Shown here piece after piece: positions 1-25,961 of a stretch of DNA of 62,492 nt. The stretch covers positions 1-62,492 of IMG/VR virus record IMGVR_UViG_3300047477_000250. The stretch is one strand, 5' to 3'. How positions within the stretch are numbered: position 1 is the stretch's first letter; each line of letters starts with the position of its first letter. This DNA is from a virus. Lineage: Duplodnaviria > Caudoviricetes. A program made the translations under genes and the position numbers. The notes under the pieces are model-generated. The model was given only the letters and a program-made list of their open reading frames with translations. It was not told the DNA's origin and searched no databases.

Positions 1-44
1 ACTTTAGATGATGTTACTAACATTATTAGTAAACTTTTTAATAC

Positions 45-119
45 GGAACATTAACTCAGCGGTAGAGTAGCGTCTTGATAAGGCGTTGGTCGGTGGTTCA
101 AATCCACCATGTTCCACCA
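45..119 (+). tRNA. tRNA-Ile(GAT)
   Basis: Acceptor GGAACAT/ATGTTCC+ACCA; anticodon loop TTGATAA; T-loop TTCAAAT. Confidence 0.95.
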
Positions 120-123
120 TTTT

Positions 124-165
124 GGCTTATTAGCTTAGTCTGGCTCAAAGCGCTACCCTGTCACG
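124..165 (+). pseudogene. 5' half of an interrupted tRNA-Asp(GTC)
   Basis: GGCTTAT acceptor strand, D arm and CTACC-CTGTCAC-G anticodon arm, then an abrupt switch to AT-rich sequence; pairs with 742-769. Confidence 0.85.
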
Positions 166-231
166 TTATTTAATGTTGAAAATTTTCTTTAGTCTTATTG
201 CTATTTGTCAATAATAATTTAAGGAAAATTA

Positions 232-762
232 ATGCAAACTAAAATATGTACAGACTGTAAATTAAATTTAGATATTTCTAATTTTTATATTCATAATAAA
301 AAGAAAAAAGATGGTACAATTTTATCTACTTATCAAAATCTTTGTAAAAAATGTTCTTCTAATAGAAGAAAAAAATATTATGTTAATAATATAGATACCG
401 AAAAAGCTTTGAAAAAAGAACGAGTTGAAAATATTAAAGAATGGTTTATTAATTTAAAGAAAACATATAAATGTTCTAAATGTGAAGATCCCCGTTGGTA
501 TGTTTTAGATTTCCATCATATAGATAATAATAAAGAACATAACCTAGGAGATCTTTCTTGTGGTAAATATAGTAAGAAAAAGATTTTAGAAGAATTTTCT
601 AAATGTATTCCTTTATGTTCAAATTGTCATAGAGAATTACACTATTTAGAAAAAAATGCAGCTGTAGCTCAATCGGGAGAGCGCAACACTGTCACTGTTG
701 AGGTAGTGGGATCGAAACCCATCAGCTGCGCCATAATTTCAGACGGTTCGAATCCGTCATAA
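232..762 (+). CDS. HNH endonuclease (tRNA-associated); ORF reads through tRNA-Asp
   Basis: CxxC pairs, DFHH...K and CIPLCSNCHRELH HNH motif. Confidence 0.85.
   Translation: MQTKICTDCKLNLDISNFYIHNKKKKDGTILSTYQNLCKKCSSNRRKKYYVNNIDTEKALKKERVENIKEWFINLKKTYKCSKCEDPRWYVLDFHHIDNNKEHNLGDLSCGKYSKKKILEEFSKCIPLCSNCHRELHYLEKNAAVAQSGERNTVTVEVVGSKPISCAIISDGSNPS
658..733 (+). tRNA. tRNA-Asp(GTC), intact replacement copy
   Basis: GCAGCTG/CAGCTGC+GCCA; CAACA-CTGTCAC-TGTTG anticodon arm. Confidence 0.93.
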
Positions 763-769
763 GTCGCCA
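742..769 (+). pseudogene. 3' half (T arm + acceptor + CCA) of the interrupted tRNA-Asp
   Basis: GACGG-TTCGAAT-CCGTC-ATAAGTC-GCCA; ATAAGTC pairs with GGCTTAT at 124. Confidence 0.85.
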
Positions 770-875
770 ATTTAAAAGGAAAGTATCATGGCAATGATAG
801 GTGGTCTAGCAGACCCTGATTATGAGACAGTTCTTCCTGAAAAAACTCCAAAAGAAATTGATAAACGTGTATGAT

Positions 876-970
876 GGGCGAAGCCTTACACTTAATATAG
901 AGAAATATGGAATTAAAATATCTATAGATGCATATAAAGACCCTTAGAGTGTTTGGCGTAATTGCACACT
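876..970 (+). ncRNA. Structured repeat A, copy 1 (candidate 5'-UTR element)
   Basis: 95 nt; homologous to 3956-4050 with a covarying internal stem. Confidence 0.6.
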
Positions 971-997
971 GTTTATTAATTTAATACGGTAATAAAA

Positions 998-1459
998 ATG
1001 AAAACAGAAATTAAATTTCCTGGTCTTTATACTCCTAAATTAGATAATTATAATGATAATGGTTACTATGATGGTTGTGTTGATTATCAAGTAAATGATC
1101 GTAAAGGTAAATTATTATTTTGGTTATTATTTGAAGAAGAAGATTATTTTACTATACCATTAAGAGATGAAGTTTATAAATCATGTACTCCATTTATTTA
1201 TATAGAAAGAACTTCCACTAATCATTTCTTTTTTGAAAATGATAAAGATGTTGAAGACATGTTAAAATATCCTCATACTATTAGTACTATTGGTTGTGAT
1301 GATGGACATAAAGGTTGGAGATTTGAAACTAAAGAGCAATTAGAAGCTTGGGTTATGAATTTCATACAAGATGCTCTTAATATTAATAAAAAGAACTCTT
1401 TTGAATATCCTTCTGAATTTTTAGATTATTATGAAGAAAACCAAGTTTGGAGAAACTAA
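998..1459 (+). CDS. hypothetical protein
   Basis: ORF track. Confidence 0.7.
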   Translation: MKTEIKFPGLYTPKLDNYNDNGYYDGCVDYQVNDRKGKLLFWLLFEEEDYFTIPLRDEVYKSCTPFIYIERTSTNHFFFENDKDVEDMLKYPHTISTIGCDDGHKGWRFETKEQLEAWVMNFIQDALNINKKNSFEYPSEFLDYYEENQVWRN

Positions 1460-1869
1460 TGTCTGATATTCCATTATATTTAGTTCGAATTGGTATTAAA
1501 GATATCCCTAGTGAAGATCATTTAGGATATCCAGCATCAGGACTCATTGGTGAAGAAACTAATGTCTTTGATGTGAATAATGAAATGATTCATGTTGGAG
1601 ATATAGTTAAAGTAACTAAAGAAAATGGTTGGTGGACAGGTTTAATTATATACCATGATAGTTATAAATATGGTGAATACTATACTATAACTGGAATGGC
1701 TTCTTCTCCTTTAAAAGAATTAAGTAAGACGCATAAAATTGAAAGAGTCGTACCTTATACTCATTTAAATCAAGAGTATAGAAGACATATTCACTATATT
1801 GCATTATCAGAAAAATATTTAGATACATCTTACAATTTTGTGAATGGTGTATGGACTAAAATAAAATAA
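1447..1869 (+). CDS. hypothetical protein
   Basis: ORF track; likely start ATG 1459 overlapping the upstream stop. Confidence 0.65.
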   Translation: MEKLMSDIPLYLVRIGIKDIPSEDHLGYPASGLIGEETNVFDVNNEMIHVGDIVKVTKENGWWTGLIIYHDSYKYGEYYTITGMASSPLKELSKTHKIERVVPYTHLNQEYRRHIHYIALSEKYLDTSYNFVNGVWTKIK

Positions 1870-1880
1870 TAGGTAAACTA

Positions 1881-2048
1881 ATGAAACAATGGTTAAAAGA
1901 TTTTACACATAATTGTATTGTTCATCCAATGATGATGTTTATACCTAAAAAATGGGCTAACCAGCTCCATGATCGACATGCTGGTTGGTGTTGGGGAAAA
2001 GAAAATCATGTTGACGAATTAACTTTAGAAGGTTTTCGTGAAAAATGA
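1881..2048 (+). CDS. small hypothetical protein (55 aa, MKQWLKDFTHNCIVHP...)
   Basis: Read manually; AGGT RBS; below the ORF-track cutoff. Confidence 0.6.
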   Translation: MKQWLKDFTHNCIVHPMMMFIPKKWANQLHDRHAGWCWGKENHVDELTLEGFREK

Positions 2049-2212
2049 ATTTAAACATTTTTTAATACTATTAAAGGTACAGTACTAAATGTACTAAGTA
2101 CTTATAAAGAAAAAATTAATCGATTAGATCAAAAACCTAAAACATTAATTAATGTTTTAATGGAACGTTTTGAAAATCAGACAAAAACTAATTTAGAAAG
2201 CTGTAGGCATAC

Positions 2213-2654
2213 AGGTGTTCTTAAGTTACAGTTGGGCTACTTACCTAACAACGTGCTTGTATGAGCATGATTTGCAATCCTTTCTATCTCTCCTCATACT
2301 TCCCATGTGTAAACACATGTTCTAGTCAGGAGAAACCCCTCCGTGCATTTGTCTAACGGAGGCTAAAAATGGTGACGTTAGTCCACGATCCACGTAGCAC
2401 CTGATCCTTGGTCACTCCGTAAAGGAGGAGTAAAGGGTAGTATGGCAGTGGCATACATTCCCTATGGGACATGGAGAATTGTTCAATTACCTGAGACCAT
2501 GTAAAATCCGCAGGAAGTTGAGAAATTTAATCTATTAGTTGCTTATGTAAATATGATTCTAGAAAACATTACATATTCGAACATCTATCTGTTAAAAGAA
2601 GTGGTGCAGTTGGTATCTCGGGTACACGAGTCTCAAAGTACATACGGAGCACCT
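2213..2654 (+). ncRNA. Large GC-enriched structured ncRNA candidate
   Basis: No ORF; closing stem AGGTGTTC/GAGCACCT; many internal hairpins. Confidence 0.55.
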
Positions 2655-2694
2655 TAATGTTGAATTCTAAAGATAGATTAAAACAAATTTAATT

Positions 2695-2939
2695 AACACA
2701 CATAACCGTAAGAAGTTCCATCCAAATATCTACTTGTATCTTTAGATTGTATTTGAGATGTTCTGTGACGGATTTATTAGTAGAAATAAAGAGAAGTGGA
2801 TAGTAACCTACGATTGCTTATCAACAGCTTAGGCTTCGATTTGCCGTATACGGTATACAAAACAGATGACCCCTTAGTTTAAGAATTCGTTCTTATTCTG
2901 TATGAGCTAAATCAGTCTTACGCCTTCTTTATGTGTGTT
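2695..2939 (+). ncRNA. Structured repeat B, copy 1 (~250 nt)
   Basis: Homologous to 4469-4735 with compensatory changes. Confidence 0.7.
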
Positions 2940-2940
2940 T

Positions 2941-3116
2941 AGTTATCTTAGACCTGGGTTGTCCTATCCAGGTGTAGTACCCATTGTTAATCATTTGAAT
3001 CAGAATATAGACGTATGTTTAAAGTTTGAATGGTCGCTAGAAAATCCATGGTCCTAGTGTATAAAATAAGGTGGAATTGTAGGTTCGAATCCTCGCAATT
3101 CAGGTCTAAGATAATT
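2941..3116 (+). ncRNA. RNA with a T-loop-like hairpin inside a long closing stem
   Basis: AGTTATCTTAGACCTG/CAGGTCTAAGATAATT stem; AGG-TTCGAAT-CCT. Confidence 0.5.
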
Positions 3117-3142
3117 AGGAAGTTGGCCTCAAAGTAGCTGAT

Positions 3143-3676
3143 TTATTCGTCAGCGTGTTCTTTTCGATGACAATTCGCACATAAAACTATACACTTATCT
3201 AACTCAGATTTAATACTATTAAAAGTCTTAGTAGTCTTAGATATTGAAAAATCTTTTTGTAAAGGATCTGTATGATGAAAATCATAAATTTGTGGGTAAT
3301 CTTTATCTACTAATTTACATCTATTACATATCCATCCTAAATACTCTAAAGCTTGAATTTTTATATTTCTTCGTCTTTGTGAAGATTGAATTGACCTACA
3401 AGGTTTACAAACGGAATCATAATATTCCCATACTCTTTCATTTTCCTTTTGGACTTGTTTATAAAATTCAGTTGTAGATTTTTCTAGTTTACAATCTAAA
3501 CAGATTTTTTCTTTTTTATCTATTGCTCTATCTACTACTTTTTCTGCTTTCTTTATTTTCAAGTTATGTGTTTTTGCAAATAAATAAATTGTAGATTTTG
3601 ATTTATTAGTTTTTTCTACTAAATCAGAAATTGTTAAATCTTGTTTGATTAGTTCAATTATTTGTTGGGTATTCAT
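3143..3676 (-). CDS. HNH endonuclease, paralog of 232-762
   Basis: DFHH, CIVLCANCHRKEH. Confidence 0.85.
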   Translation of the reverse strand: MNTQQIIELIKQDLTISDLVEKTNKSKSTIYLFAKTHNLKIKKAEKVVDRAIDKKEKICLDCKLEKSTTEFYKQVQKENERVWEYYDSVCKPCRSIQSSQRRRNIKIQALEYLGWICNRCKLVDKDYPQIYDFHHTDPLQKDFSISKTTKTFNSIKSELDKCIVLCANCHRKEHADE

Positions 3677-3751
3677 TGTAATTACTCATATTTTAATTTA
3701 TTATATATGTTGTTCAACTCTTTATAATTTTGTTTTTAAAGAGCTAAACGT

Positions 3752-3780
3752 ATTATAATTATTATGTAAAGTTTTGTCAA
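3752..3780 (-). promoter_or_regulatory. Consensus sigma70 promoter for the HNH gene
   Basis: TTGACA-17 nt-TATAAT on the minus strand. Confidence 0.85.
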
Positions 3781-3955
3781 TCTTTTAAAGAGTCACAAGA
3801 ACGATCCGTAGTGCAGCATACCCAGTCCCAGGGAGAGCTGACGTAAAAGTTCAGGGGAAGAATTAGTACAGTTTTATATATAATGTAGAAGGTAATATGG
3901 GCGGTATATGTTGTGATGACTATATCTCTAGAAGTTATGCTGGAACTATGTTTAA

Positions 3956-4050
3956 GGGCGAAGCCTTAGACTTAATCTGATGAAAGTAAGGGATAGGATA
4001 ATCAGAGATGTATATAAAGACCCTCAGAGTGTTTGGTTTAACAACACACT
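3956..4050 (+). ncRNA. Structured repeat A, copy 2
   Basis: See 876-970. Confidence 0.6.
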
Positions 4051-4081
4051 ATTTATCAATTAATATTCAAGGTAATTTAAT

Positions 4082-4333
4082 ATGGAAGAAAGAATCTTAG
4101 AAACATTAAAAATTTCTATGTATAAACTAGCATATTATAATTACAATGCTACCTATGGTCGGTATCAGTATGAGCAGGAGATTCTTGCTTATAAGTACCA
4201 TATAGGAACTCTCGTAGATTTGTGTATCTTAGAAGGAATTAGTATAGCTAATCTTTCTGAGTCGTATGATGGTTATACTGTCGATGAAGAGGATTTAATC
4301 TCTTTTGTCGAACTAGTTAAATATTTTAATTAA
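4082..4333 (+). CDS. hypothetical protein (only ORF found with an apparently triplet-read in-frame CGG, at 4160)
   Basis: ORF track. Confidence 0.55.
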   Translation: MEERILETLKISMYKLAYYNYNATYGRYQYEQEILAYKYHIGTLVDLCILEGISIANLSESYDGYTVDEEDLISFVELVKYFN

Positions 4334-4468
4334 TCCCCCTTAAATAGTTGGGAAGGAGTTTGCAATTAAAAGATAGGTTGACTTCCTATCTCTGTACAGC
4401 TTAGACAAACAGAAGTTATCTTTAAATGCCCCGAGGAAAGAAGCGGAATAGGCGTCTGTTTTAGTGTT

Positions 4469-4735
4469 TTACATAACCACAAGAAGCTCCATCCAAGTAT
4501 CTACATTAGCTTGCATTTGACCACTGATTATCATGCCGATGCGATAAGCACATTATTTGAGATGTTCTATGGTGGCTCTATTGGTAGTGATAGAGAGAAG
4601 TGGAGATTAATAAATATTGAGTTGGACTGATTTTTGTTTACCCAATCTATTTATTATGAAGTGATGACCCCTTAGAGATATGTATTCGTACATACTCCGT
4701 ATGAGCTAAATTGTCCTTACGCCTTCTTTATGTAA
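4469..4735 (+). ncRNA. Structured repeat B, copy 2
   Basis: See 2695-2939. Confidence 0.7.
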
Positions 4736-5105
4736 CCATTCATAAAATAAATGAATTAAAAAGAGAATTTTAATGTTTGAATATGATAAATTGTCAAAAG
4801 AAAAATAGGCGATTGTTCTTCAAGTTATGTTTAGTAATTACTTTCCTTTTACCACGCTCCAATTTTAATTAATATTTAGAAATAATTTATATCCACAACA
4901 AGTAATCGACGGACGCACTTAATTACGTAAGTATGACAGTACCGTATCAAATGTATGTTGATACCAGCAAAAGAGACAGAAAGTTATTATAAATTATTTC
5001 ATAAATATTAATTATTAAGTTTTAATCACGACAAATGTTTAATGTTTAAAAGTTCTCAAATAAAATTAATCTTTTAAAATTATAGAAACTGTATAGGTAT
5101 TTAAT

Positions 5106-5348
5106 ATGAATATTACTAATGGTGAAGTTGAAGAGATTAGAACATGGTCTCATTTTAATAATAAAGTTATTAAATTTCAAAATACAGTTAACTCTGAAAT
5201 ATTTAAACAATTATTTAATGATGATTGGAAACGATTACGTATTCATTTTATTGAAGATTGTAATCGTGACCTTAATAAATTTAGAACATATTTAACTAAC
5301 AATCAAAATAATGATGTATTAACATATATAGTAAGAATTAGTTTATGA
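5106..5348 (+). CDS. hypothetical protein
   Basis: ORF track with RBS. Confidence 0.6.
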   Translation: MNITNGEVEEIRTWSHFNNKVIKFQNTVNSEIFKQLFNDDWKRLRIHFIEDCNRDLNKFRTYLTNNQNNDVLTYIVRISL

Positions 5349-5573
5349 TGTATGTTATATTAATTAACTTATTTGCATACGAGGAATTGCGTAGCATTGG
5401 AGAAACCGTTGATAACTGAGTAATAAAAGCTTTGGATAAAGTTATTACGAGGTTTGATAGAATGTAGGTATCGAGGCCTACTGTGAATAAGTTAATTAAT
5501 ATAATGATGTGTTAATATATATATATATATATGTAGTTAGAATTAAGTCATAGTATAATTAGGAGTCACATTA

Positions 5574-5981
5574 GTGAGTAGTGATGTATTATTAAATGAA
5601 GCTAAAGCTATTATACATACTTATGGTTTAGCTACTAGTGCTAGTGTATTTGCTCAAAAAGTAATAAACTACATAGAAGAGTCAGAAGGAATTAAAATTA
5701 ATTCAAGTGTATTAGAGTATTTAAATGATTACTTTCCTGCTCCTTTTTATTTAAAAACAAATAAATATGAAGTAGGTACTGTTTTGTATACTGCTAAACC
5801 TTATATTCGTACTAATGCAACTATTGTAAATATTAAAGGTAATACTTTTATTATATTAACAGATATTGGTAATCTAATAGAAGTAGATGTTAAAACTTTA
5901 GAATCAAATTATTTACCACCTGTTTGTAAAAGAGCAAGGAGTGTACCTGATTTAGAGGAAGAGTATTTTACCTTATTATAA
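5574..5981 (+). CDS. hypothetical protein
   Basis: ORF track, AGGAG RBS. Confidence 0.65.
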   Translation: MSSDVLLNEAKAIIHTYGLATSASVFAQKVINYIEESEGIKINSSVLEYLNDYFPAPFYLKTNKYEVGTVLYTAKPYIRTNATIVNIKGNTFIILTDIGNLIEVDVKTLESNYLPPVCKRARSVPDLEEEYFTLL

Positions 5982-6024
5982 TTAAAATTGAAATTATTAT
6001 ATATTATTATCAGGAACTTAAATA

Positions 6025-6726
6025 ATGAGTTATATTCAAAATAAAATCCAATATAGTAGGTTACATAAAAATGAAAGGCAAGTATTAGAATACTTATTTT
6101 GTACGCTTGGTAATGGAATTGATTTAAATTTAAAAGGTCATATTGAAAGTTATTACGATGCTGAATTTATTATTACAGAACCAGTATTACCTTTATCTTA
6201 TATTTATCCAATTCATACATTTAGTAGTCGTGGTTCACGTTTAGCTGGATGTTCTAATAAAGGATTTAAAGAAGCAGTTCAATATTTAATTGATTGTATT
6301 ATGGTTACTCCTGATACTGTTTCTAATGTTAAAGATTGGAAAGATAATATTCATATTCTTGAAAAATTAAGAGATCATCCGCCTATAAAAGATCAATATA
6401 GTGATAAAGAATTAGGTGAAGAGAATTTTCTTAAAGAATTAATGAAATCGACTTCGACTACTGCAAGTCATTGTAATCTTCAAGGTATTCCAGATAATTC
6501 TGTTCGAAAAATTCAATATTTTGATGTTCAATGGTCTGACACTCCTGAATTTGTTTTAGAAGAAGTTAAACAATTATGGTTAGATTATACGTTAGGTAAT
6601 GATAAATATATCTATAAAACTAATTTAGATGATGAATTATTTGCAAGTTATCCTCGTATTTATTTTTGGCTTAAACATAAAAATGTTAAAGAAAACGAAG
6701 AAGTAATTGTTCATTGGTGGTGGTAG
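6025..6726 (+). CDS. hypothetical protein
   Basis: ORF track. Confidence 0.7.
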   Translation: MSYIQNKIQYSRLHKNERQVLEYLFCTLGNGIDLNLKGHIESYYDAEFIITEPVLPLSYIYPIHTFSSRGSRLAGCSNKGFKEAVQYLIDCIMVTPDTVSNVKDWKDNIHILEKLRDHPPIKDQYSDKELGEENFLKELMKSTSTTASHCNLQGIPDNSVRKIQYFDVQWSDTPEFVLEEVKQLWLDYTLGNDKYIYKTNLDDELFASYPRIYFWLKHKNVKENEEVIVHWWW

Positions 6727-7218
6727 TAATATGAAACGTAAAGAGACTCAAGAAGAAATTGATAAACGTGTAGCTAAAAGAGAAGAAAAACTTCGTCAAA
6801 AATTAGCAGAAATTGCACAAAGAGAACGTCATTTCCAAGAAGCACATGACTATAGAGAACGTATGGGTATTTGCCATTTGGCTCAAGGTATGTATGGTTG
6901 GGATTAATGTTATCAGATTTTTAAAAGACTTTGGAATAGCAACTATTAAATGAAAGAATTAAAACCAAAATTTATATTTCAATATAGTCAAGCTGATATA
7001 TTTTTAGCTAATATTGATAATACACTTTCTTTATTTGAAAATATTAATACTTTATATTCTCTTTTAAACTTTAACCAATTAATTCTTTGGATGAGATTAC
7101 ATAAGATACTTCGCCATTATTTTAATCAGTTTATTTATGATGTAGCAAGAGATGGTAGTTGGATAATGATTAATAATGAAAAATATTTATTTGATAGTAT
7201 CAACAGTGTAGTAGAAAA

Positions 7219-7605
7219 ATGAGTCAAGAAAATTATTTAAAATTGTACATTGCTGTGCTGGAAGATTGTCCCGATTTTATAGTTCCAACTCTTGTAGCTC
7301 ATAGTATGTTAGGTGCTCATTTAATGTTTGAAGCTACATCTGGACATTTAATTAACGGAGGACTAACTAAAGTTTATGATTTAACTTATAAACATTGGTT
7401 AACAGAATCTTTCCGTAAATGTGTAATACGTGTTAATCGTAAGGAATTTGAAAAGATTAAACAACTAGATAAAGTATATTTAGGACATGAAAATACTACA
7501 TTAGGTGGTGAAAAATCTTGTGCAGTAGTGTATCCAGTATGGAGTAATAATTTACCCAATGTATTAAAATTCGCACAACTTTGGTCTCCAAAATGTCAAA
7601 ACTAG
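7219..7605 (+). CDS. Pth2-like peptidyl-tRNA hydrolase domain protein
   Basis: KLYIAV...AH...W...FRKCVIRV pattern resembling the PTH2 fold. Confidence 0.55.
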   Translation: MSQENYLKLYIAVLEDCPDFIVPTLVAHSMLGAHLMFEATSGHLINGGLTKVYDLTYKHWLTESFRKCVIRVNRKEFEKIKQLDKVYLGHENTTLGGEKSCAVVYPVWSNNLPNVLKFAQLWSPKCQN

Positions 7606-8059
7606 GTTACAATTATGGAAATAATGAAAATATTAGTAATTGGTAAATCAATTTTACCAAAGATTATAAATACAATACCAAAAGAATATTTAATACGACA
7701 AGTAAAATCACCTTATATTCAATATATTTATAATATTGAAAATACAGAAATTATTGTAAGATGCTATAATACATTAAATAATAATTCTTTAAGAGGACAA
7801 TCTTTTGATATAATATATTGCCATCCAACTGAATATTTAGATTATGTAGAATTTTTAATACCTTTATATTTTAGTAATCCAAAATTAGAAATTCGATTGA
7901 TAACTAAATCACGATTAAAATAATTGTACAGTTGGTTGTCAAAATAAATAGAGATGGGTTAGATTCCTTAACTATGTTTAGACTCTCGAAATCGTACGTT
8001 TTATTGATTGATATTTATTTGATTGTAGTTTTTAGTGAATTTATATTAAGTAGAACATT

Positions 8060-8407
8060 ATGAAATACTTTTTAAAATTAACAAACAGTTTTAAGTATAT
8101 TTTATTTTCATATGTTACTAGTTTGTTATTAGCTTCAATATTATTTTCTTATATAGAAAATCATTCCTTTATAGATTCTTTATACTGGGCTTGTGTTACT
8201 TCTTTAACTATAGGTTATGGTGATTTATCACCTGTTACTACTATAGGTAAAATCATAGCTATTGTATTTGGACATTTTTGGATTTTTCTAATTATTCCAT
8301 CTATTATTAGTTTGATTGTTACAAATATTATTCAAGATAAAAATGAATTTACTCATCTTGAACAAGAAGAAATCAAATCAATGTTAAAAGAACTATTAAA
8401 TAAATAA
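8060..8407 (+). CDS. Potassium channel family protein (2TM, Kcv/KcsA-like)
   Basis: Selectivity filter TSLTIGYGD between two hydrophobic helices. Confidence 0.9.
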   Translation: MKYFLKLTNSFKYILFSYVTSLLLASILFSYIENHSFIDSLYWACVTSLTIGYGDLSPVTTIGKIIAIVFGHFWIFLIIPSIISLIVTNIIQDKNEFTHLEQEEIKSMLKELLNK

Positions 8408-8723
8408 AATATTCGATTTTGTTTCTTTTAAAATAAAAAGAAAGAAATTAATCCAAGCTTTAAAATTATTTTAAAGAATTTCTCTTCTAACCAAAGAGAA
8501 GAAGTTAGTATATTCTTCAAAAATATACCAGAGCTAGACTGTAAAATAGATCCTTTGTCATTGTAAGGTAAATGACCTTGTATTTATGAATAGTACAAAG
8601 AACCTATTCGTAACAACCTGACGAAATAGGTTGGATGACTCTAACATTAAAAATAGATTAGTGATGACAAACTAAGCTTATAATATATTATAAGTAAAGG
8701 GAGTGGTACTTCCAGTCAATTTA

Positions 8724-8803
8724 AGGCATGTGGTGAAGTGGCTCAACACACTGGGTTTTGATCCCAGCATATATCGTTAGTTCGAATCTAACCATGCCTT
8801 CCA
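8724..8803 (+). tRNA. tRNA-Gln(TTG)
   Basis: AGGCATG/CATGCCT+TCCA; CTGGG-TTTTGAT-CCCAG. Confidence 0.9.
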
Positions 8804-8909
8804 TATTTTATCTTATTTTCTATCGCAAATTTTAAACTAATTTTTGGATTAGGAAATATGTCTTTATCCTCTATACTTGACTATAACATTTAGTCATCCC
8901 TTATTTTAA

Positions 8910-8976
8910 ACATTACTAACAGCAACTTTCCTAAAACAACAAACTTTTAATTTGTCCTCGTTCAAGATAGTAATGT
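8910..8976 (+). repeat. ACAGCAA hairpin element, copy 1
   Basis: ACATTACTA/TAGTAATGT stem; AACAGCAA; internal ACAAA-CTTTTAA-TTTGT. Confidence 0.7.
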
Positions 8977-9237
8977 GTCTATATTTTTTTAGTTAAATTC
9001 AGCTAATATTAATTTAAATATTTGCGGATAACTAACTTTTAAGCGTTGTCGTATGTAGATCTGAAACTCTACCCAAATTGGATTATTTGAGATACCTTCG
9101 ATATTAGAAGGCGAAATATTATTTAATATTAGACTAAATTTAATTATATTAAGAATCTTCTTATTCGTTTATTACATGTACTTCCAGTCACAGAATTCTT
9201 AAAAACTAATTTTAAAAGTTTTTTAAACTAATTTTAA

Positions 9238-9343
9238 AAGCTACGAACCGCAAATTCTTACAAAACTACTTTTAATCAAACTATCGAAAGCACTTATACT
9301 GTCTGTTCACATCAGACCTGTATATTTTAAATTGTAGTAGCTT
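9238..9343 (+). repeat. ACAGCAA hairpin element, copy 2 (ACCGCAA variant)
   Basis: AAGCTAC/GTAGCTT stem; internal GTCTG-TTCACAT-CAGAC. Confidence 0.6.
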
Positions 9344-9454
9344 GTTTTACAGCCCTTTTATATAATTCTCTTCGGAGAGTTTATAAAGCATATGTGATGA
9401 CTGTTAGGAAAGACTAACAACTAATATATCTAAAGAAATTCAAGGAGAGTTACT

Positions 9455-9877
9455 ATGACTCAATTAGTACAACTTGCTAAAGTTATGTCTGAAACTTTTC
9501 ATTCAAATCAAAAATATGGAATTGAAGATTACTTTAAATACCATATAGAAGGTGTTGTTAATTCTTTAAAACTTCATAATTTTTGTGAAGACTATGTGAT
9601 AGTGGGATATTTACATGATCTTGCTGAGGATACTTCAATTTCTTTAGATACTATTTACAATCTTTTTGGTAAGACTATTGGTGATGCTGTAAAAGCTATT
9701 ACTAAAGTTAAAGATGAACCAAGAATAAATTATTTATCTCGTTGCGCTTCAAATCCTATTGCTCGTATGGTTAAGTTACATGATGCACTATTTAATGCAA
9801 CTAATTGCCATAAAAACAAAAATAAGACTAAAGTTAATTATTATTTAGATACTATTAATTCTTTAAAAGTAATGTAG
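9455..9877 (+). CDS. HD-domain hydrolase, small RelA/SpoT (Mesh1-like) type
   Basis: HxxQ...YxxH, LHDxxEDT, VKLxD...N motifs. Confidence 0.8.
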   Translation: MTQLVQLAKVMSETFHSNQKYGIEDYFKYHIEGVVNSLKLHNFCEDYVIVGYLHDLAEDTSISLDTIYNLFGKTIGDAVKAITKVKDEPRINYLSRCASNPIARMVKLHDALFNATNCHKNKNKTKVNYYLDTINSLKVM

Positions 9878-10260
9878 TAATGAAAGGTAATAGTGTAGCT
9901 AGGTGTATGAACATTGTTAATCGTAATAGTGTTCATAAAAATCTTAAAGATGAATTAGAGAAAGATAATAAGTTTTGGATAGGTGAAGAATTTAAAGAAA
10001 TTGATTATTCATTTTTAAATGATGACTCAATATGTAATTTATTTGAGTCTACTTTAGAAACTCAAATAAAAATGGAAGATTAATAATGATTACTTTAATA
10101 GTAAATATTCTTATGTTTGTAAGAAACAGATTAAGAATTACAACTATGAAATAAATGTACTCGTAAATATGTTGTGTATTAGTAATAGAGGTATTACTTG
10201 TTTACAGATGTTTATCGCTGTATTGAATGTGAAGAACTTATTAAAAATTAAGGCTTATGA

Positions 10261-10653
10261 ATGAATTTTATAAAAAATATACTAGAAGACAAACAGTTCC
10301 AAGAACTAGCTAAAACTTGTACTCAAATCTTAGAGAGAGTACAAGAAAATCTAAGTACAGAATCTAAAATGAAATCTGATTCTAATACTAAAGCTAATAC
10401 TTCTAATCCAGAACCTAAAGCAAAAGATTCTTCTCTTTTACAACATTTGATTTCTCTGTATGAGAATCTAATTGGTGCTAAATTTCAGCATCGTCGTAAA
10501 GGAACAACTTATATCTTAAATGAAATCTTAAATACACAAAGTGATGATTTTGAAAAAACACCTGTAATGGTTACATATTATGATATAAATAAAAAGACAA
10601 AATGGTGTAGGCCATTGACTGAATTTCATTCGAATTTTAGTTTAATTACCTAA
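10261..10653 (+). CDS. hypothetical protein, DUF1653-like C-terminus
   Basis: FQHxxKGxxY...VxY...WCRPxxEF. Confidence 0.55.
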   Translation: MNFIKNILEDKQFQELAKTCTQILERVQENLSTESKMKSDSNTKANTSNPEPKAKDSSLLQHLISLYENLIGAKFQHRRKGTTYILNEILNTQSDDFEKTPVMVTYYDINKKTKWCRPLTEFHSNFSLIT

Positions 10654-10659
10654 TTTTAA

Positions 10660-10716
10660 AGACTACTAACAGCAACTTAAAAAATTGTTTATTGGAAAAC
10701 TAAAAATAGTAGTCTG
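10660..10716 (+). repeat. ACAGCAA hairpin element, copy 3
   Basis: AGACTACTA/TAGTAGTCT stem. Confidence 0.7.
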
Positions 10717-10743
10717 AATTTAATTCATTAAAGGTATAACAAC

Positions 10744-10992
10744 ATGTTAACTAAAGAACAATTGCAAAAACTTATTGGTATAGAGATATTTGTAAATAAT
10801 AATAGTTTTAAATTTACTATCTTTAGTGTTGAAGACGAATTAATGAAAGTCAGATGGGATAATAGTGCTATTGATTCAGACATGTATATTTTAAATTTTA
10901 ACAAAAATATGTTACCTAAAATATTCATGTATGCTTCTGATGAAACAGATGACCTTATATCAGTAAAAGATTTTATTGAAATTATTGATTAA
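10744..10992 (+). CDS. hypothetical protein
   Basis: ORF track. Confidence 0.6.
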   Translation: MLTKEQLQKLIGIEIFVNNNSFKFTIFSVEDELMKVRWDNSAIDSDMYILNFNKNMLPKIFMYASDETDDLISVKDFIEIID

Positions 10993-11037
10993 TACTATTT
11001 TAAACTATTTTATGTCTTTACTAAAAGTAATACTACC

Positions 11038-11457
11038 ATGAACTTATTTGAACAAATTAAACAACAACGAGATATTGCTCGTAAAGAACGTAATCAAGTT
11101 ACTTTAACATTACTTAGTACACTAATTGGTGAAATTGAAACTAAACATCGTTCTAATGATAAAAACTATTCAGATTTAATACAAGCTTCTCAAAAAGTTA
11201 TTAAACAAACAATTGATTCTTGTAAAGAAATGTACGAATTAAAGAAAGATGATAAATTCTTAAATGAAATTTCAGTGTTAGAAAAATTACTTCCTAAGTC
11301 ATTAGAAGATGATGAAATTAAAGTTATTATTAACGATATTAAAGAAAAGATTTTAGATATTAAAATTCTAACAAAAGAAGTTATGTCATATTTAAAAACT
11401 AATTATTTTGGTAGATATGATAGTACAAAAGTTCTTCAATTTATAAAGGAAATTTAA
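11038..11457 (+). CDS. GatB/YqeY domain protein
   Basis: A+K+R...L..L..EI, EI.VLE.LLP..L, VM.YLK....GRYD pattern. Confidence 0.75.
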   Translation: MNLFEQIKQQRDIARKERNQVTLTLLSTLIGEIETKHRSNDKNYSDLIQASQKVIKQTIDSCKEMYELKKDDKFLNEISVLEKLLPKSLEDDEIKVIINDIKEKILDIKILTKEVMSYLKTNYFGRYDSTKVLQFIKEI

Positions 11458-11459
11458 TT

Positions 11460-11885
11460 ATGGCATTTAACCACTTAGCTTATTTTTCTGAAGATGTTCG
11501 TCGACTTTTTGTAAGAACTGATGTAGAACCTTATTTTGAAGCAATTGCTAAGCATTTAGAAGATAACTTTCAGTATAGTAGACTTTGTAGAGTTGAACGT
11601 AACTCAGAATACAAAATTAATTTAAATACCATTAGATATAATTCTTCTGGATATTTTTCAATTATGAGTAATACTGCATTTAGTGATATTAATTTTAATG
11701 ATATTACCATAGATAATTATTTTAAAATGGCTTTAAAAGTAGGTCTAATAACATTTGAGAGAATGTCTTTAGATATTCAAAATTCATTACACTATTATGC
11801 TTGTTTTTTAACTTATTGTTTGATTGAAGAGATACGTAATCAACTTCCTAATAATAACCACATACCTTGGAATTCTACTAGATGA
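11460..11885 (+). CDS. hypothetical protein
   Basis: ORF track. Confidence 0.65.
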   Translation: MAFNHLAYFSEDVRRLFVRTDVEPYFEAIAKHLEDNFQYSRLCRVERNSEYKINLNTIRYNSSGYFSIMSNTAFSDINFNDITIDNYFKMALKVGLITFERMSLDIQNSLHYYACFLTYCLIEEIRNQLPNNNHIPWNSTR

Positions 11886-12436
11886 CATTTAAAGTTTCGA
11901 TCTTAGATCAATTAATTAAACATAATCAAGCTATTATACCCACTCCTATTGAGAGTAGCATTGATATTTCAGGGGCAGCAGTTGCTGTTTCAGATTTAAA
12001 AGTCTTTTTAAAATCACGAGTTCCATCAGACAATGTTGCTCTTTTTACTAACATGTGTCAAGAAATCGTATTGCCTGGAAATCCAGAACCAAGGACTGCA
12101 ACTGCTCTATTAGAGGAAGAAGTTCCTCGTCCTAGAGGTATATGGGATCAAATTCTTCAAGCACAGCAAAATATAAACACGCAATATACAATTGAACGAA
12201 ATGGCGTTGCTGAACTTCCTACAGAACACCTTAGTGAGTCTCTAGCTCGTGGCCCTGTAACTCCACGATTTACAGCAAGAGCTGCACCTAGTTATCAAGA
12301 TATTGCACCTCCAGTCACTGATCGAGTAATTCCATTAGAAACTGAAGAACCTGTTATTCCACAAACTACTCCTTCTACTCCTGCTCCTCTTGAAGTTAGA
12401 ACATTATTTGGTGGTCAAGTTGTACTTCCAACTTGA
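11882..12436 (+). CDS. hypothetical Pro/Thr-rich protein
   Basis: ORF track. Confidence 0.65.
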   Translation: MTFKVSILDQLIKHNQAIIPTPIESSIDISGAAVAVSDLKVFLKSRVPSDNVALFTNMCQEIVLPGNPEPRTATALLEEEVPRPRGIWDQILQAQQNINTQYTIERNGVAELPTEHLSESLARGPVTPRFTARAAPSYQDIAPPVTDRVIPLETEEPVIPQTTPSTPAPLEVRTLFGGQVVLPT

Positions 12437-12657
12437 ATACAGAAATAAACTATTTTATGAATTTTATTAGTAATCTAATTTACTAATAATTTAATTTTTG
12501 TATAATAATATTAATAAGAATCTATACTGCTGGTTATTCAGAGAAAACATAAGTTACTATAAGATTGTTTATTAAGTTATTATACTAAATATACCGTTGA
12601 AATTTCAACAAATCAATTAACGACCACAAGGTCAAACCCCTTATAAGGAAAAGAAAT

Positions 12658-12861
12658 ATGTCAAATTTATTGTTAGATGCCGTTGGTACTTATCGTGTTC
12701 AATATCCACAAGCTGGTTTAGATTTAACCATTGCTGGTTATTCTCCTAATCAAATTAAGTCTGAGTTGGCTTCTCAGTACCGTGAATTAGCAACTGCTAC
12801 TGTTCAAGTAGCTGGTAACGTTGTTACTTTTGCTTTGCCATCTGGTCAAAAGAACGGATAA
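12658..12861 (+). CDS. Prokaryotic ubiquitin-like protein (PRTRC protein C-like)
   Basis: 67 aa; Y.ELATA.V...VTF....G.K.G ending in Gly; strong RBS; upstream of E2/JAB/E1-like genes. Confidence 0.75.
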   Translation: MSNLLLDAVGTYRVQYPQAGLDLTIAGYSPNQIKSELASQYRELATATVQVAGNVVTFALPSGQKNG

Positions 12862-12877
12862 TTTCGTTTTTTAAATT

Positions 12878-12916
12878 TAGGTACTAGTGTTTTATTTCAC
12901 TAGTACCTATTTTATT
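12878..12916 (+). terminator. Rho-independent terminator after the Ubl gene
   Basis: TAGGTACTAGTG/CACTAGTACCTA followed by a T tract. Confidence 0.7.
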
Positions 12917-13456
12917 CTATACTATTTATGGATCTATATGCATAATTTTTTATTAATTATATGGTCAATGTTCTTACCTTCTCGCACAACTTCAAGTGTT
13001 AGCTCAGTTGTTAATACTTATTCTAGAAAAGTAAGTGCTGAAATGACATCAAAAACCGCAGAACTTGGAAAAGAACAATATATTAATTTTCTTTATTATT
13101 TTATCACTGTAATTTTTAATAATGTAGGTAGTTCGAGCCATAAAGAATGGGTAGCATTTGAACTAAAAAGTAGAGAAGATTTTATCTTTAATACATTTAT
13201 TCTACAAAGAGGTATGATGCCTTTTAATTCATTTTTAGCTAGATCGATTCTTAGTAGATTAGCTTTTAAGATTAAAGATTTTTCTGGCACAACTTCTTAT
13301 GTACTTTTATCTATAGTAAGAGGAACAGCTAAGCTAACTGAAGATGAATTTACAGATTATCAGAATACTTTAGTAGAAAAATTAATTACTATAGATACTT
13401 CTTATGATGAAAATGTTACAGGTTTATTGAGAGGCATTGGTTCAAATGTACAATGA
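12887..13456 (+). CDS. hypothetical protein (true start probably downstream, ATG 12938 or later)
   Basis: ORF track. Confidence 0.55.
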   Translation: MFYFTSTYFILYYLWIYMHNFLLIIWSMFLPSRTTSSVSSVVNTYSRKVSAEMTSKTAELGKEQYINFLYYFITVIFNNVGSSSHKEWVAFELKSREDFIFNTFILQRGMMPFNSFLARSILSRLAFKIKDFSGTTSYVLLSIVRGTAKLTEDEFTDYQNTLVEKLITIDTSYDENVTGLLRGIGSNVQ

Positions 13457-13709
13457 TATTTTAAAAGGTTTAACTACAATAGAAGGCAATGCTAATGCTT
13501 TTGATTTAGTAAAACTTGGTAAAAATGAAATAACTGAAGAAATAATTAATTTTATTCAAGAAAATAGTATCATAAATAGTATACGAATGTATCGACAACA
13601 CATTGACTCTAGTAAAGCTGGTGCTTTAAAATTCTCCTTACCTCTTTTTTTAAATTTAAAAAATAATTTAAAAAATTGTCCTCCTGCACAAACTACAAAG
13701 TATATTTAA

Positions 13710-14549
13710 ATGAATCTTAACATTAGTATTAAAAAAGATGCTTCTGTTGCAACAGTAACAACAGAAGAAGAAGGTAAGTATGTTAATAAGACAGTTCCTT
13801 TGGAAAGTTTAATTAAATTATTTACTACCCTTAATGGAACAAAAAGAGATACAGGTTATTTAGCTTCTAACTTATTACGAGAAGATGTTGGTAATGTATC
13901 AAATCGAGCTTATTACTTTAAAAACTTTATTGCAGATTGCAGAGTGTCAGTATCTGGTAGTCTAAGAAATGTGTTAAAAACAGATAATCCTTACGGTATT
14001 AGTATTGACGAAAACGCTATTGTAATTAAAGATATGAATTACAGAGATATTGTAGGTGTTATCTCTAACAGTAATACAGATGTTTTTAATGTTAGTTATT
14101 ATAAAATTTATAATGCAGTCGTACCTCTATCTGGTGTTATTAATGATAGTACAAGACTAGTTCAAATCTTTCCTAATCAATTCGGAAATAGAGTATGCTG
14201 GCCTGATGGTTTGGATCAATCCTTTTTAAGTAAAAAGGATTTTAGTACTCAATCCACATTTGTAACTCGTTACTTATGCTCTAAATTTAATAATGATTTA
14301 TATCGTAATAGTCTCGCTACTTCTCATCTATCTTCACAAGATAAACAAGAGTATATTAACTTCTTATTAGAAATTTTTAATATTGAACGTGAAGATATAA
14401 TAAATACAATTAATGGTTATTCAGTAGCTTTACAATGTTTCTTAATATATTTCTTTTTATCTAATATTAAAAAGATTAATCCAGCAACTGTTGCTCGTAG
14501 TGAATCTGAATCAACATTAGGTGCATTCTTTTCTAATAGTGATAGATAA
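13710..14549 (+). CDS. Prokaryotic E2-like protein (PRTRC protein B-like)
   Basis: PN...VCW and SKFNNDL motifs; operon context. Confidence 0.55.
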   Translation: MNLNISIKKDASVATVTTEEEGKYVNKTVPLESLIKLFTTLNGTKRDTGYLASNLLREDVGNVSNRAYYFKNFIADCRVSVSGSLRNVLKTDNPYGISIDENAIVIKDMNYRDIVGVISNSNTDVFNVSYYKIYNAVVPLSGVINDSTRLVQIFPNQFGNRVCWPDGLDQSFLSKKDFSTQSTFVTRYLCSKFNNDLYRNSLATSHLSSQDKQEYINFLLEIFNIEREDIINTINGYSVALQCFLIYFFLSNIKKINPATVARSESESTLGAFFSNSDR

Positions 14550-14568: not shown

Positions 14569-15458
14569 ATGATCAATAAATCTATTATAATTAAGAAGTT
14601 TAAATCTTTTGATGAAAGGTTAAAAGATTTCTCTGATAGATATAGTGTACCTCTTTATACTAATAGTATATCTTTTAATTTTAAAACTAATTTATATTAT
14701 ATTCGGTAACTTTAATATATTTAGTAGACCTTTACATTACTGTACTGAAGCTACTAAAGGTGCAAAGATAAAAATTCAAATGGGTTGTTATATTCATGGA
14801 TTATTTCTTTCATCTCCTGGTAATTATTTAAGTAGTTACTCAGGTTGTCCCGAATGTTCAAAATCTTTAATAAAGAAACCTAGAATAAAATCAAAAGAAA
14901 TAATAAAATTATTTAATGTTATACATAATAATTATTACACTTATATAGATTTACCTACTTACTCTGATAAACCTATTAATATAGTTTGCCCTACTCATGG
15001 TTCTTTCTCTATGACACCTCACCATCATAAACAAGGTAGAGGTTGTAAAGAATGTAAGAAGAATAAGAAACAAGAAAATGGAGGTTGGCGGTTACTCTGA
15101 TTGGACTAATGCTGCAATAAATTCTAAAAGTTTTGAATCATTTAAAGTCTATATAATTAGATGTTATAATGATAACGAAGAATTTATAAAGATTGGCAGA
15201 ACGTTTAGTAAATTAAATAAAAGATTTGAAGGTACATCTAAGTTACCTTATTCTTATGAAATAATTTACATTAAAGAATTTAGTAACCAACAAACTATAA
15301 CTAATAACAGTATTGAATGTTGTGAATTTGAAAAGAATTTACATAAAAAATTAAAAAGTTTTAAATATAATCCCTTATTGAAATTTAATGGATACACAGA
15401 ATGTTTCAATAAGGACTCCTTAGAATTAATCAAAGAAGATCAATTATGTCTTTTTTAA
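14569..15458 (+). CDS. Zn-finger-repeat/GIY-YIG-like homing endonuclease, recoded at CGGT 14704 and 15089 (295 aa)
   Basis: CxxHG/CPxC repeats plus KVYII...FIKIGRT...ECF; three frames join exactly at CGGN. Confidence 0.8.
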
Positions 15459-24832: not shown

Positions 24833-25961
24833 TTAAATTAACTCATGAAGATAATATTAAACAAAGTATAGCAATACATAAACGGTAAAACTATACTTTG
24901 CATTCCTTCTAAAAAAGTACCTTCTTCTCTTGTTAATTTTTGTTTTATTTCAACTAATGTGTACTATAAATATAGTAGGTATTATTATCCAAAGATAGTA
25001 CCTAAATCTACTAAAGATTATACTTACATTGGTTGTTATGCTCATGGTCTATTTAAATGTACTATGAGTAATCATAAACAAGGCAGAGGATGTCCTAAGT
25101 GTGCTGTAGAGTTAAGAAAGAAATTATGTACTATTACTTTTGATGAATATTTGAATATCTTTAAACAAATACATCGGTAATACATATAAGTATATCGAGA
25201 CTACTAAGAGAGAATCAGATAAATTTACTGTAGTGTGTAAAATACATGGTAAATTTAAAATTACTCCTAAGCACCATAGAAGAGGGCAAGGTTGTCCTAA
25301 GTGCGGATTAATAAAATCTTCAAAGAGTTTAATTATATCTCAAGAACAAAATTTAAAAGTATTTAAAAATAAACATAGTTACAATTCTATTATAAACTAT
25401 AAATTGATATCTAAACAGAAATCAAACTATAAATTGTTAACTTACATTGGTTATAATAATTATAATTGCATAAATAAGTATCAATATCTTTCTAATAATT
25501 ATAAAAATACAAGTAAAATAAAAATAGTATGTAGTGTACACGGAGTATTTAAACGAAGTGTTAAATTACATAAAGAAGGTTCTGGGTGTCCTCGTTGTAA
25601 TCAACTTAACTTAAAAGGTGGTTGGTCTTATAAAGAATGGATGAACAAAGCAAGTACTTCTAAGAATTTTGATGGTTATAAAGTATACATATTACTTATT
25701 AATAACAATGATTCTAATGAAGAACAATTTATTAAAATTGGAAGAACTTATACTTCCGTACATAAACGTTTTCAAAACAAATTAAATTATTCTTATACTA
25801 TTATAAAAGAAATAAGTTTTGAAGATGCAAAAGAGTGTTGTGATTATGAATCTTATTTATTAAGTTCATTAAAGCAATATTCACATAAACCTTTAAAACA
25901 TTTCTCAGGAAAATCCGAATGTTTTAATTTAGAAGGTTTAAAAATATTAAGATTAAATTAG
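24829..25961 (+). CDS. Zn-finger/GIY-YIG-like homing endonuclease, recoded at CGGT 24883 and 25175 (376 aa)
   Basis: Frames join exactly at two CGGT sites. Confidence 0.8.

Follow-up and report, generated by a model that had tools for sequence, protein, structure and literature searches.

The window analysed here is the whole 62,492-nucleotide (nt) stretch of DNA given by positions 1 to 62,492 of the IMG/VR virus record IMGVR_UViG_3300047477_000250 (Duplodnaviria; Caudoviricetes). Close to its 5' end, a transfer RNA (tRNA) gene for tRNA-Asp(GTC) is split just behind the anticodon loop, and its two parts enclose a predicted HNH endonuclease gene together with a second, complete tRNA-Asp(GTC). 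In the following, the split gene is termed the outer tRNA and the complete gene the inner tRNA. The locus contains these features:

45 to 119, plus strand: tRNA-Ile(GAT), the next gene upstream in the array of tRNAs, with 4 nt between it and the outer tRNA-Asp (ARAGORN; Rfam tRNA model, 67 bits)
124 to 165, plus strand: 5' part of the broken resident tRNA-Asp(GTC) (sequence; half-tRNA detector)
166 to 231, plus strand: AT-rich leader of the insert, 66 nt, with the ribosome-binding site AAGGA 7 nt before the HNH start codon
232 to 762, plus strand: predicted HNH endonuclease open reading frame (ORF) of 176 amino acids (ORF list; phrog_2255; homologs)
658 to 733, plus strand: complete inner tRNA-Asp(GTC) with G73 and an encoded CCA (ARAGORN; Rfam, 62.9 bits)
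734 to 741, plus strand: spacer of 8 nt from the inner tRNA to the outer 3' part (sequence)
742 to 769, plus strand: 3' part of the broken resident tRNA-Asp (sequence; half-tRNA detector)

The outer 5' part of 42 nt consists of the acceptor strand GGCTTAT, the nucleotides TA (T8-A9), a D arm with a stem of 4 base pairs (bp; GCTT/AAGC), a G and the stem strand CTACC. It then ends with the loop CTGTCAC, which harbors the anticodon GTC, and a G as the first stem nucleotide past the loop. The 3' part consists of the T arm GACGG-TTCGAAT-CCGTC, the acceptor strand ATAAGTC, G73 and CCA. The two acceptor strands pair in 7 of 7 positions, six of them as Watson-Crick pairs and one as G-T. The HNH ORF overlaps the whole inner tRNA and stops with a TAA at 760 to 762 inside the outer 3' acceptor strand. 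A previous reading of the window from sequence only had proposed a tRNA-Asp split after the anticodon loop, an insert with an HNH gene and a complete, divergent tRNA of the same anticodon, and an HNH frame traversing the new tRNA into the old 3' half; all three are borne out. That reading also called the outer tRNA broken, which holds for the two halves, but the break is not a simple cut. Alignment to intact genes reveals that approximately 9 nt are missing, namely the four 3' anticodon-stem bases and the five-base variable loop. Presumably, the inner tRNA-Asp is the working copy. At the cassette ends a single AT-rich match of 5 bp was seen, and this pairing is not convincing.

A strict detector for pairs of tRNA halves found no pair in 40 first-order-Markov random sequences of 62 kilobases (kb). 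In the real window it found two pairs on the plus strand, this locus and a weak, probably spurious one at 13305/14618, and none on the minus strand. Furthermore, a 2786-nt contig of run X7, which stems from wastewater and another study, spans positions 95 to 860 with 4 differences, and contigs of run X2, a second freshwater sample, tile 85 to 2500 with 0 differences. Because contigs of other runs and studies carry the junctions, these are not an accident of assembly.

The origin of the two tRNAs can be followed by comparison to intact genes. The outer 5' half is identical in 38 of 42 positions to the intact tRNA-Asp genes of two contigs, L238 (a 791-kb contig from the Joint Genome Institute, JGI) and L101 (a 261-kb IMG/VR contig), and the outer 3' half in 22 of 28 positions to L101 and in 20 of 28 to L238. 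The L238 gene is even identical to the 5' piece from position 8 to the last base of the piece. The inner tRNA reaches only 26/42 and 15/28 when aligned to the two halves. Since the halves match L238 and L101 far better than the inner tRNA, they are a broken resident gene and not a local duplicate. An unusual G2-T71 wobble is common to the window's outer gene, L238 and L101, and the acceptor positions 4-69, 5-68, 6-67 and 7-66 vary compensatorily among these three genes, which identifies both halves as the two ends of one former tRNA-Asp gene. The inner tRNA is 86 to 93% identical to tRNA-Asp genes of Acinetobacter phages, and it is precisely the variable loop and the 3' strand of the anticodon stem in which it departs from the outer type. 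It belongs to a separate lineage, in agreement with the divergence claimed from the sequence earlier. In the Acinetobacter phages Bestia and AB1I1M-1, a similar tRNA-Asp is present with no HNH gene adjoining it. Within L238, positions 5000 to 13750 hold 39 tRNA genes in 8.7 kb, including many same-anticodon duplicates (Phe four times, Tyr three times and Pro(TGG) four times); this dense array suggests repeated duplication or cassette gain.

The HNH part that is common to the homologs covers amino acids 1 to 142 (nt 232 to 657), and the codons for the last 34 amino acids of the ORF lie in the inner tRNA, in the spacer and in the outer 3' half. The ORF matches the PHROGs HNH families phrog_2255 (E-value 1.6e-24) and phrog_3106 (E-value 2.6e-18), and 69 database homologs were found at E<=1e-8, mostly 130 to 160 amino acids long. 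In alignments of 14 and 38 homologs, the residues C81, C84, D93, H95, H96, C129, N131, C132, H133 and H137 are invariant. They form two CxxC pairs and the motifs DFHH and CxNCHR..H, which we take to be the His-His general-base site, the conserved Asn and the second His together with flanking CxxC zinc ligands. It is on these sequence features that the assignment as an HNH endonuclease is based. A profile search of the PDB sequences yielded only McrA (6ghc), with an E-value of 1e-4 over 24 residues. An AlphaFold2 model with a predicted local distance difference test score (pLDDT) of 93.7 displays two strands and a helix at residues 92-96, 125-129 and 130-141, respectively.

The unusual C-terminus can be traced to a short run of adenines. 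The closest homolog, P0001, stems from a 135-kb contig, is 85% identical and ends with ...LEKMQL*; the next homologs, P0002 to P0006, are 60-72% identical. In the window, the neighbouring frame after ...LEK reads ATG CAG CTG TAG at 656 to 667, which is M, Q, L and stop, and this TAG sits in the GTAGCTC of the inner tRNA. Seven A are present at 650 to 656, and six would yield the ending of P0001. The read-through is best explained by one extra A in this run. No insertion or deletion at 650 to 656 is reported in the contigs of other runs, and for this reason the extra A seems real. Since the ending of P0001 matches the neighbouring frame of the window, the usual design is an HNH stop inside the first bases of the downstream tRNA.

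The habitat of this HNH family has been followed in phage genomes. Using tblastn, relatives were found in 245 phage records, including Felix O1-like, T5-like, crAss-like and Pseudomonas phages, and 81 IMG/VR loci with HNH homologs were fetched for counting. tRNAs lie on the HNH strand in 51 of the 81 loci, and orphan motifs of a T arm plus acceptor strand are found 83 times on the HNH strand versus 19 times on the other. A stop within the downstream tRNA is frequent in the family: the HNH stop lies inside the next tRNA in 11/81 loci, and a tRNA starts within 30 nt in 17/81. The C-terminal tails of several HNH homologs, for example GSVAD, resemble translated 5' ends of tRNAs. The HNH family is thus strongly tied to tRNA arrays. 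Beside such arrays near HNH genes two large structured RNAs were seen, a full-length ROOL RNA at 3573-4164 of L021 (312.6 bits) and a partial match to the OLE RNA model at 2412-2567 of L002 (85.8 bits, model positions 437-594).

Different degrees of this association can be distinguished. Whole tRNAs of the same amino acid flank the HNH gene in 5/81 loci, and in two of these, L012 and L085, the anticodons agree as well. In 8/81 loci, the 3' part of an orphan tRNA lies between -30 and +250 nt of the HNH stop, at a distance of at most 7 nt in four of them. One of these is the T5-like Salmonella phage LVR16A (L031), where the unannotated 3' part abuts the HNH gene. The nested design with a complete inner tRNA was found in two of the 81 loci:

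L002: 5' part 2821-2846, complete tRNA-Phe 2867-2942, HNH gene 3001-3446, 3' part 3447-3477
L038: 5' part 2352-2377, complete tRNA-Val 2398-2475, HNH gene to 2860, 3' part 2867-2894

In both, the tRNA precedes the HNH gene, and the old gene breaks off behind the D arm and continues from within the variable loop. Nearest-neighbour typing places the outer pieces of L002 closest to tRNA-Phe genes, which is the identity of its inner tRNA. An HNH ORF alone between tRNA parts is seen in at least five loci (L016, L030, L032, L046 and L071). A relaxed detector of 5' halves is noisy, with 51 pairs versus a mean of 24.6 in shuffled-locus controls, and only served to pick cases for inspection by eye. The family therefore forms a series, which runs from HNH genes between unrelated tRNAs, through HNH with tRNA-X beside an intact copy of tRNA-X and HNH with tRNA-X within a broken copy of it, to an HNH gene that sits alone in a broken tRNA.

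The HNH gene, as a free-standing homing-endonuclease gene, and its tightly linked tRNA-Asp(GTC) are probably a mobile unit, which was copied into a resident tRNA-Asp in the region from the anticodon loop to the T arm. The course of events would be as follows. The HNH enzyme would cut or nick a still intact tRNA-Asp gene of the outer type, somewhere between its anticodon loop and its T arm, and the break would be resected, in this case with a loss of approximately 9 nt. Repair would then copy the HNH gene and the tRNA from a donor genome carrying the cassette. The old 5' and 3' parts would remain as dead flanks and could serve as short homology arms for the next homing, and the spare tRNA-Asp of the cassette would keep the phage supplied, making the insertion harmless without any splicing. 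The inner copy may not be a substrate and may escape cleavage, since its differences lie exactly in the variable loop and the 3' strand of the anticodon stem.

This cut-and-repair course is proposed because SegB and characterised homing endonucleases work in this way. SegB of phage T4 cuts within the gene for tRNA-Asn in phages without segB and drives the inheritance of the tRNA region (PMC2330249). Like the segB gene of T4 and T6, the HNH gene is an intron-free nuclease gene among phage tRNA genes (PMC2330249; PMC13096335). For SegB, the target lies inside a tRNA gene of nuclease-free genomes and flanking tRNA genes are carried along (PMC2330249), for which a parallel is proposed here. In contrast, SegB belongs to the GIY-YIG nucleases, recognises a T-loop motif and sits between whole tRNA genes, and a split target with a nested copy of the same anticodon is not described in the available parts of the two SegB papers (PMC2330249; PMC13096335).

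Several observations weigh against such a mobile unit. Pfam HNH models give no match at E<=0.1, and the AlphaFold2 model resembles solved HNH nucleases weakly, with a best Foldseek E-value of 0.38. In VIA-align, its Z-score is 3.6 (weak) against Gme HNH (4h9d), and it scores 6.3 against Hpy99I (3fc3), in the zinc-ribbon part of that enzyme. Moreover, the C-terminal extension of 34 amino acids may mean that the enzyme is already inactive here. The strict detector requires perfect acceptor pairing and in this way favours well-preserved cases. Because gene order and break site of L002 and L038 differ from the window, what recurs is a design and not one identical element. The nesting in tRNAs of the same identity, for which the sequence-only reading had suggested a search, is supported for L002 (Phe in Phe), but the outer identity of L038 is ambiguous in nearest-neighbour typing. 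Furthermore, neither IMG/VR nor a set of 185,579 species genomes contains the exact sequence of the inner tRNA's anticodon arm plus variable loop, and none of the scans returned the same cassette at another genomic site.

The search for an empty site adds to these points. In exact-pattern scans of IMG/VR, neither the whole 5' half nor the whole 3' half had a match, and the outer D-arm pattern matched only unrelated tRNA-Lys and tRNA-His genes. The predicted intact anticodon arm retrieved first more than 119 and then 37 tRNA-Asp genes, the best being that of L101, and the scan of one JGI metagenome led to L238, an intact tRNA-Asp in an unrelated contig. Neither is a sister genome, and tblastx of the L101 locus against the window returned nothing. 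A joint from about 165 to about 742 is absent from the contigs of four runs. Across these runs and the IMG/VR and JGI pattern scans, a thin sampling, no close relative with an uninterrupted tRNA-Asp at this place was found; for a presence/absence polymorphism of the cassette, this is at such a sampling absence of evidence. Intact relatives of the outer tRNA, which the earlier reading had proposed to look for, thus exist in unrelated contigs but were found in no close relative. The homing cassette as such is partly supported, by the discrete unit of HNH and tRNA, the different lineage of the outer halves, the recurrence of the layout with homologous HNH genes and the tie of the family to tRNA arrays, but no sister empty site was found.

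Strain variants of the locus do occur. In runs X2 and X5, a contig joins window position 59 to 495 via 109 other letters. This variant is devoid of most of the tRNA-Ile, of the outer 5' half and of 263 nt at the start of the HNH gene and keeps the remainder, being 99% identical over 495 to 2367; run X2 contains both forms. The variant and the frameshifted HNH end together suggest that decay of the nuclease has begun, with the tRNA being retained. Decay is the usual fate of a homing endonuclease gene after its spread.

Among the alternatives, the locus might be the scar of a recombination between diverged tRNA arrays, either by short homology or illegitimate, in which the HNH gene was a passenger and the exchange was perhaps begun by another of the many nucleases of this genome. 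The region is indeed mosaic among relatives, since the contigs of X6 and X7 diverge at window position 860 and rejoin at 2193 through another tRNA-like piece. At least ten other endonuclease-like ORFs are present in the window, and in a stretch of 16 nt around the anticodon loop the outer tRNA matches the inner one at 14 positions. For SegB, it has been reported that the rearrangements it drives use microhomology of tRNAs and neighbouring sequences (PMC13096335). Nevertheless, HNH homologs are found in the same nested arrangement in unrelated contigs and with other tRNA identities, which would be hard to explain if the HNH gene were irrelevant. Also, the breaks fall repeatedly within the interval from the D arm to the variable loop, and the HNH gene abuts a 3' tRNA part within 7 nt in the four loci mentioned above. 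A mere scar is therefore considered unlikely.

A second alternative is that the outer halves are kept for a role in the RNA. Here, the acceptor strands and T arm would form a tRNA-like clamp around the HNH message and the inner tRNA. This clamp would direct RNase P and 3' processing and thereby determine how stable the nuclease message is or at what dosage it is present, as a natural "tRNA scaffold". In favor of this, the outer tRNA has kept its acceptor pairing, both the D and the T arm, G73 and CCA intact, and the minimum free energy (MFE) fold of the 646-nt unit contains the T arm as well as a pairing of outer positions 1-7 to 636-642. The inserts of L002, L038, L016 and L046 cleanly replace the anticodon arm and leave the remaining tRNA body preserved. 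In addition, the authors of the SegB study proposed that tRNA-type processing of the transcript controls, and probably limits, the expression of the homing endonuclease (PMC2330249). However, a long-range MFE fold of an AT-rich RNA is weak evidence. A strain variant without the 5' half exists, many orphan 3' parts have no detectable 5' partner, and the preservation may simply reflect a recent insertion or the bias of the detector toward preserved cases. An RNA role in place of homing is thus rather unlikely.

Both ideas can be combined in a unit of two layers. It would propagate itself by intron-free homing, and the dead halves would serve as homology arms in the DNA and as a tRNA-like clamp in the transcript. 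RNase P and the 3' enzymes would recognise the clamp, and the nuclease message and the spare tRNA would thereby be released, stabilised or throttled. This combined proposal is speculative and quite improbable. If true, engineered tRNA scaffolds would have a natural counterpart in such a unit, and introns and inteins would be joined by a third mode in which a selfish nuclease can live in a useful gene.

It is very unlikely that the insert is a group I or other intron which is spliced out, leaving a functional outer tRNA-Asp. Introns do occur in the surroundings of this family: ARAGORN reads intron-bearing tRNAs near HNH relatives (25 candidates in the 81 loci), and in L045 and L056 Rfam finds group I introns in tRNA-Arg at 74 to 76 bits. 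In the window, the same Rfam group I model (RF00028) and all other intron families give no match at E<=1 over positions 1 to 3000, and ARAGORN, with introns of up to 700 nt allowed, finds no intron-bearing tRNA at the locus. The non-coding part of the insert amounts to 66 + 8 = 74 nt. Its leader (166 to 231) is too short for a ribozyme, matches no Rfam family at E<=1 and shows no convincing promoter match on the plus strand. Restoration of the outer tRNA by excision of 166 to 741 was considered and ruled out, since the 3' anticodon-stem strand and the variable loop are absent from the product. Because of these findings no splicing route is apparent, and the HNH ORF lies neither within a self-splicing intron nor within an intein.

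Group I introns with homing endonuclease ORFs are present in the anticodon loops of bacterial and phage tRNA genes (PMC3984707). The insert shares with them the position in or next to the anticodon loop and the endonuclease ORF within it. In contrast, it is devoid of a ribozyme and its exons cannot be joined, so that a spare gene instead of splicing covers the cost. Examples of such introns are found in L045 and L056 (2863-3147, minus strand), where a group I intron of 209 nt interrupts the anticodon loop of a tRNA-Arg(TCT) and an HNH homolog lies beside it on the opposite strand. Two further ARAGORN candidates, of 241 and 211 nt, are located in tRNA-Leu of L068 and tRNA-Lys of L072, respectively.

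For the Lak megaphages, "enigmatic" tRNA introns have been described, one of which possibly encodes a tRNA (PMC6784885). The likeness to the window is a tRNA-like sequence nested in the anticodon region, and for Lak alleles with and without the insert exist. In contrast to the window, the available part of that paper mentions no nuclease gene in the insert, and the outer Lak tRNA is complete once the insert is removed (PMC6784885). Similar inserts of 58 to 125 nt were observed in the anticodon loops of otherwise complete tRNAs in L037 (745-884, 1381-1577 and 3187-3323) and L026 (2005-2164, equal to L055 2792-2951). They are tRNA-like, as each has an acceptor stem of 7 bp, a T arm and a discriminator followed by either CCA or CAA, and have no anticodon arm; Rfam calls two of the L037 inserts as tRNA (779-840 and 3222-3279). 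Their position seems to be inside the anticodon, for example CTTT|insert|TAA. After removal of the insert the outer tRNA is complete for L037 3187-3323 and L026 2005-2164, and not for the window locus with its missing nucleotides. One idea is that RNase P and 3' processing excise such an insert and leave a 3'-OH and a 5'-phosphate for an RNA ligase. These inserts may be of the same kind as the Lak intron with the possible tRNA in it (PMC6784885).

Metagenome assemblies can join repeats such as tRNA genes, and the detector gave one weak extra pair. Nevertheless, an assembly chimera or a resemblance by chance is scarcely credible, since identical junctions are present in contigs of other runs and studies, random sequences gave no pair, and the halves match intact tRNA-Asp genes elsewhere.

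Besides SegB, the Lak inserts and the group I introns, two further groups of known systems are close to the locus. The tRNA region of phage T5 contains the HNH genes F-TflI, F-TflII as well as F-TflIV (cited in PMC2330249). Using tblastn, the HNH proteins from tRNA regions of T5-like and Felix O1-like phages show 34 to 38% identity to the window HNH and belong to the same family, and their stop abuts the next tRNA. The homolog ORF47 of Felix O1 lies between tRNA-Gly and tRNA-Thr and ends 1 nt before tRNA-Thr. In contrast to the window, these neighbouring tRNAs are whole and of other identities.

The second group are the fungal mitochondrial mORFs, which carry a foreign C-terminal gene segment into atp6 of Allomyces and into atp6, atp9, cox2 and nad3 of Glomus (PMC3630166). 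In both systems, an endonuclease ORF adjoins a divergent replacement of the gene that it interrupts, and the native part is a remnant, which for mORFs lies downstream and is not expressed (PMC3630166). However, mORFs reside in protein-coding genes and encode LAGLIDADG or GIY-YIG enzymes, whereas the window combines a tRNA gene with an HNH enzyme. Furthermore, mORFs replace just the 3' segment and form an in-frame hybrid (PMC3630166), whereas the window element brings a whole tRNA and both old ends stay. No hybrid gene is formed here, as the inner tRNA is complete in itself and the native 5' part is unused. In a literature search, with subscription journals and supplements outside its reach, no paper was found on a phage tRNA split by an HNH gene and a complete tRNA of the same anticodon.

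The phage itself is large and uncultured, and the window is a 62.5-kb fragment with an estimated completeness of 27%. It is AT-rich, contains 8 tRNA genes according to ARAGORN and harbors T4-like genes of replication and nucleotide metabolism (UvsX-like recombinase, RIIA, DNA ligase and thymidylate synthase). Public runs containing this stretch are freshwater, wastewater and sediment metagenomes. The only detectable cultured relative is the jumbo Acinetobacter phage ME3, with one protein at 36% identity. At the nucleotide level, the sole match to any cultured phage is the non-coding stretch 864 to 970 (107 nt), which is 85% identical to the non-coding stretch 161979-162088 of ME3; it matches no Rfam family and may be a small RNA or a regulatory element.

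Besides the HNH gene of the locus, a second phrog_2255 HNH is encoded on the minus strand, at least eight ORFs match phrog_681 "endonuclease" and one matches phrog_4645. Since so many homing-endonuclease-like ORFs accompany the second HNH, the window represents a heavily invaded genome. The endonuclease-rich ORF sites are:

3143-3676, minus strand
14645-15458
16238-16918, minus strand
17501-18106
25233-25961
36093-36734
41001-41468
42364-42957
46144-46899
48040-48384

A homing-endonuclease fragment directly follows the UvsX-like recombinase ORF (47149-47967), which covers only part of its profile, and an exonuclease is split into two ORFs (48365-49367). At 40260-40393 a tRNA-like element is located, whose acceptor strands GCGGGTA and TACCCGC pair and which has a canonical T arm, the discriminator T and CCA. 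It contains an AT-rich stretch of about 65 nt before the T arm and is called by neither ARAGORN nor Rfam. On its 3' side, broken ORFs of the phrog_681 endonuclease extend over 40453-41468, and the element may be another nuclease-associated tRNA remnant. Finally, the long stretches 1870-3140 and 3680-5570 are free of ORFs of at least 100 amino acids. Within the first, 2193-2457 is conserved, with many substitutions, in related contigs of other runs. Neither stretch matches an Rfam family at gathering score; they may hold non-coding RNA or small genes.

It is thought that homing endonucleases survive in useful genes by means of self-splicing introns or inteins, or otherwise reside between genes. 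The present element meets the cost of a broken target differently, as it carries a whole replacement gene. For the annotation of phage genomes this is a warning, since what looks like a tRNA "intron" or an orphan half of a tRNA may be the scar of such a cassette. If the HNH enzyme cuts the old allele and spares the new one, the element would drive the replacement of tRNA genes and a horizontal flow of tRNAs between phages. This would explain the many tRNA fragments and same-anticodon duplicates in phage tRNA arrays. Such cassettes would also be a source of site-specific nucleases, whose targets can be read from the broken gene.

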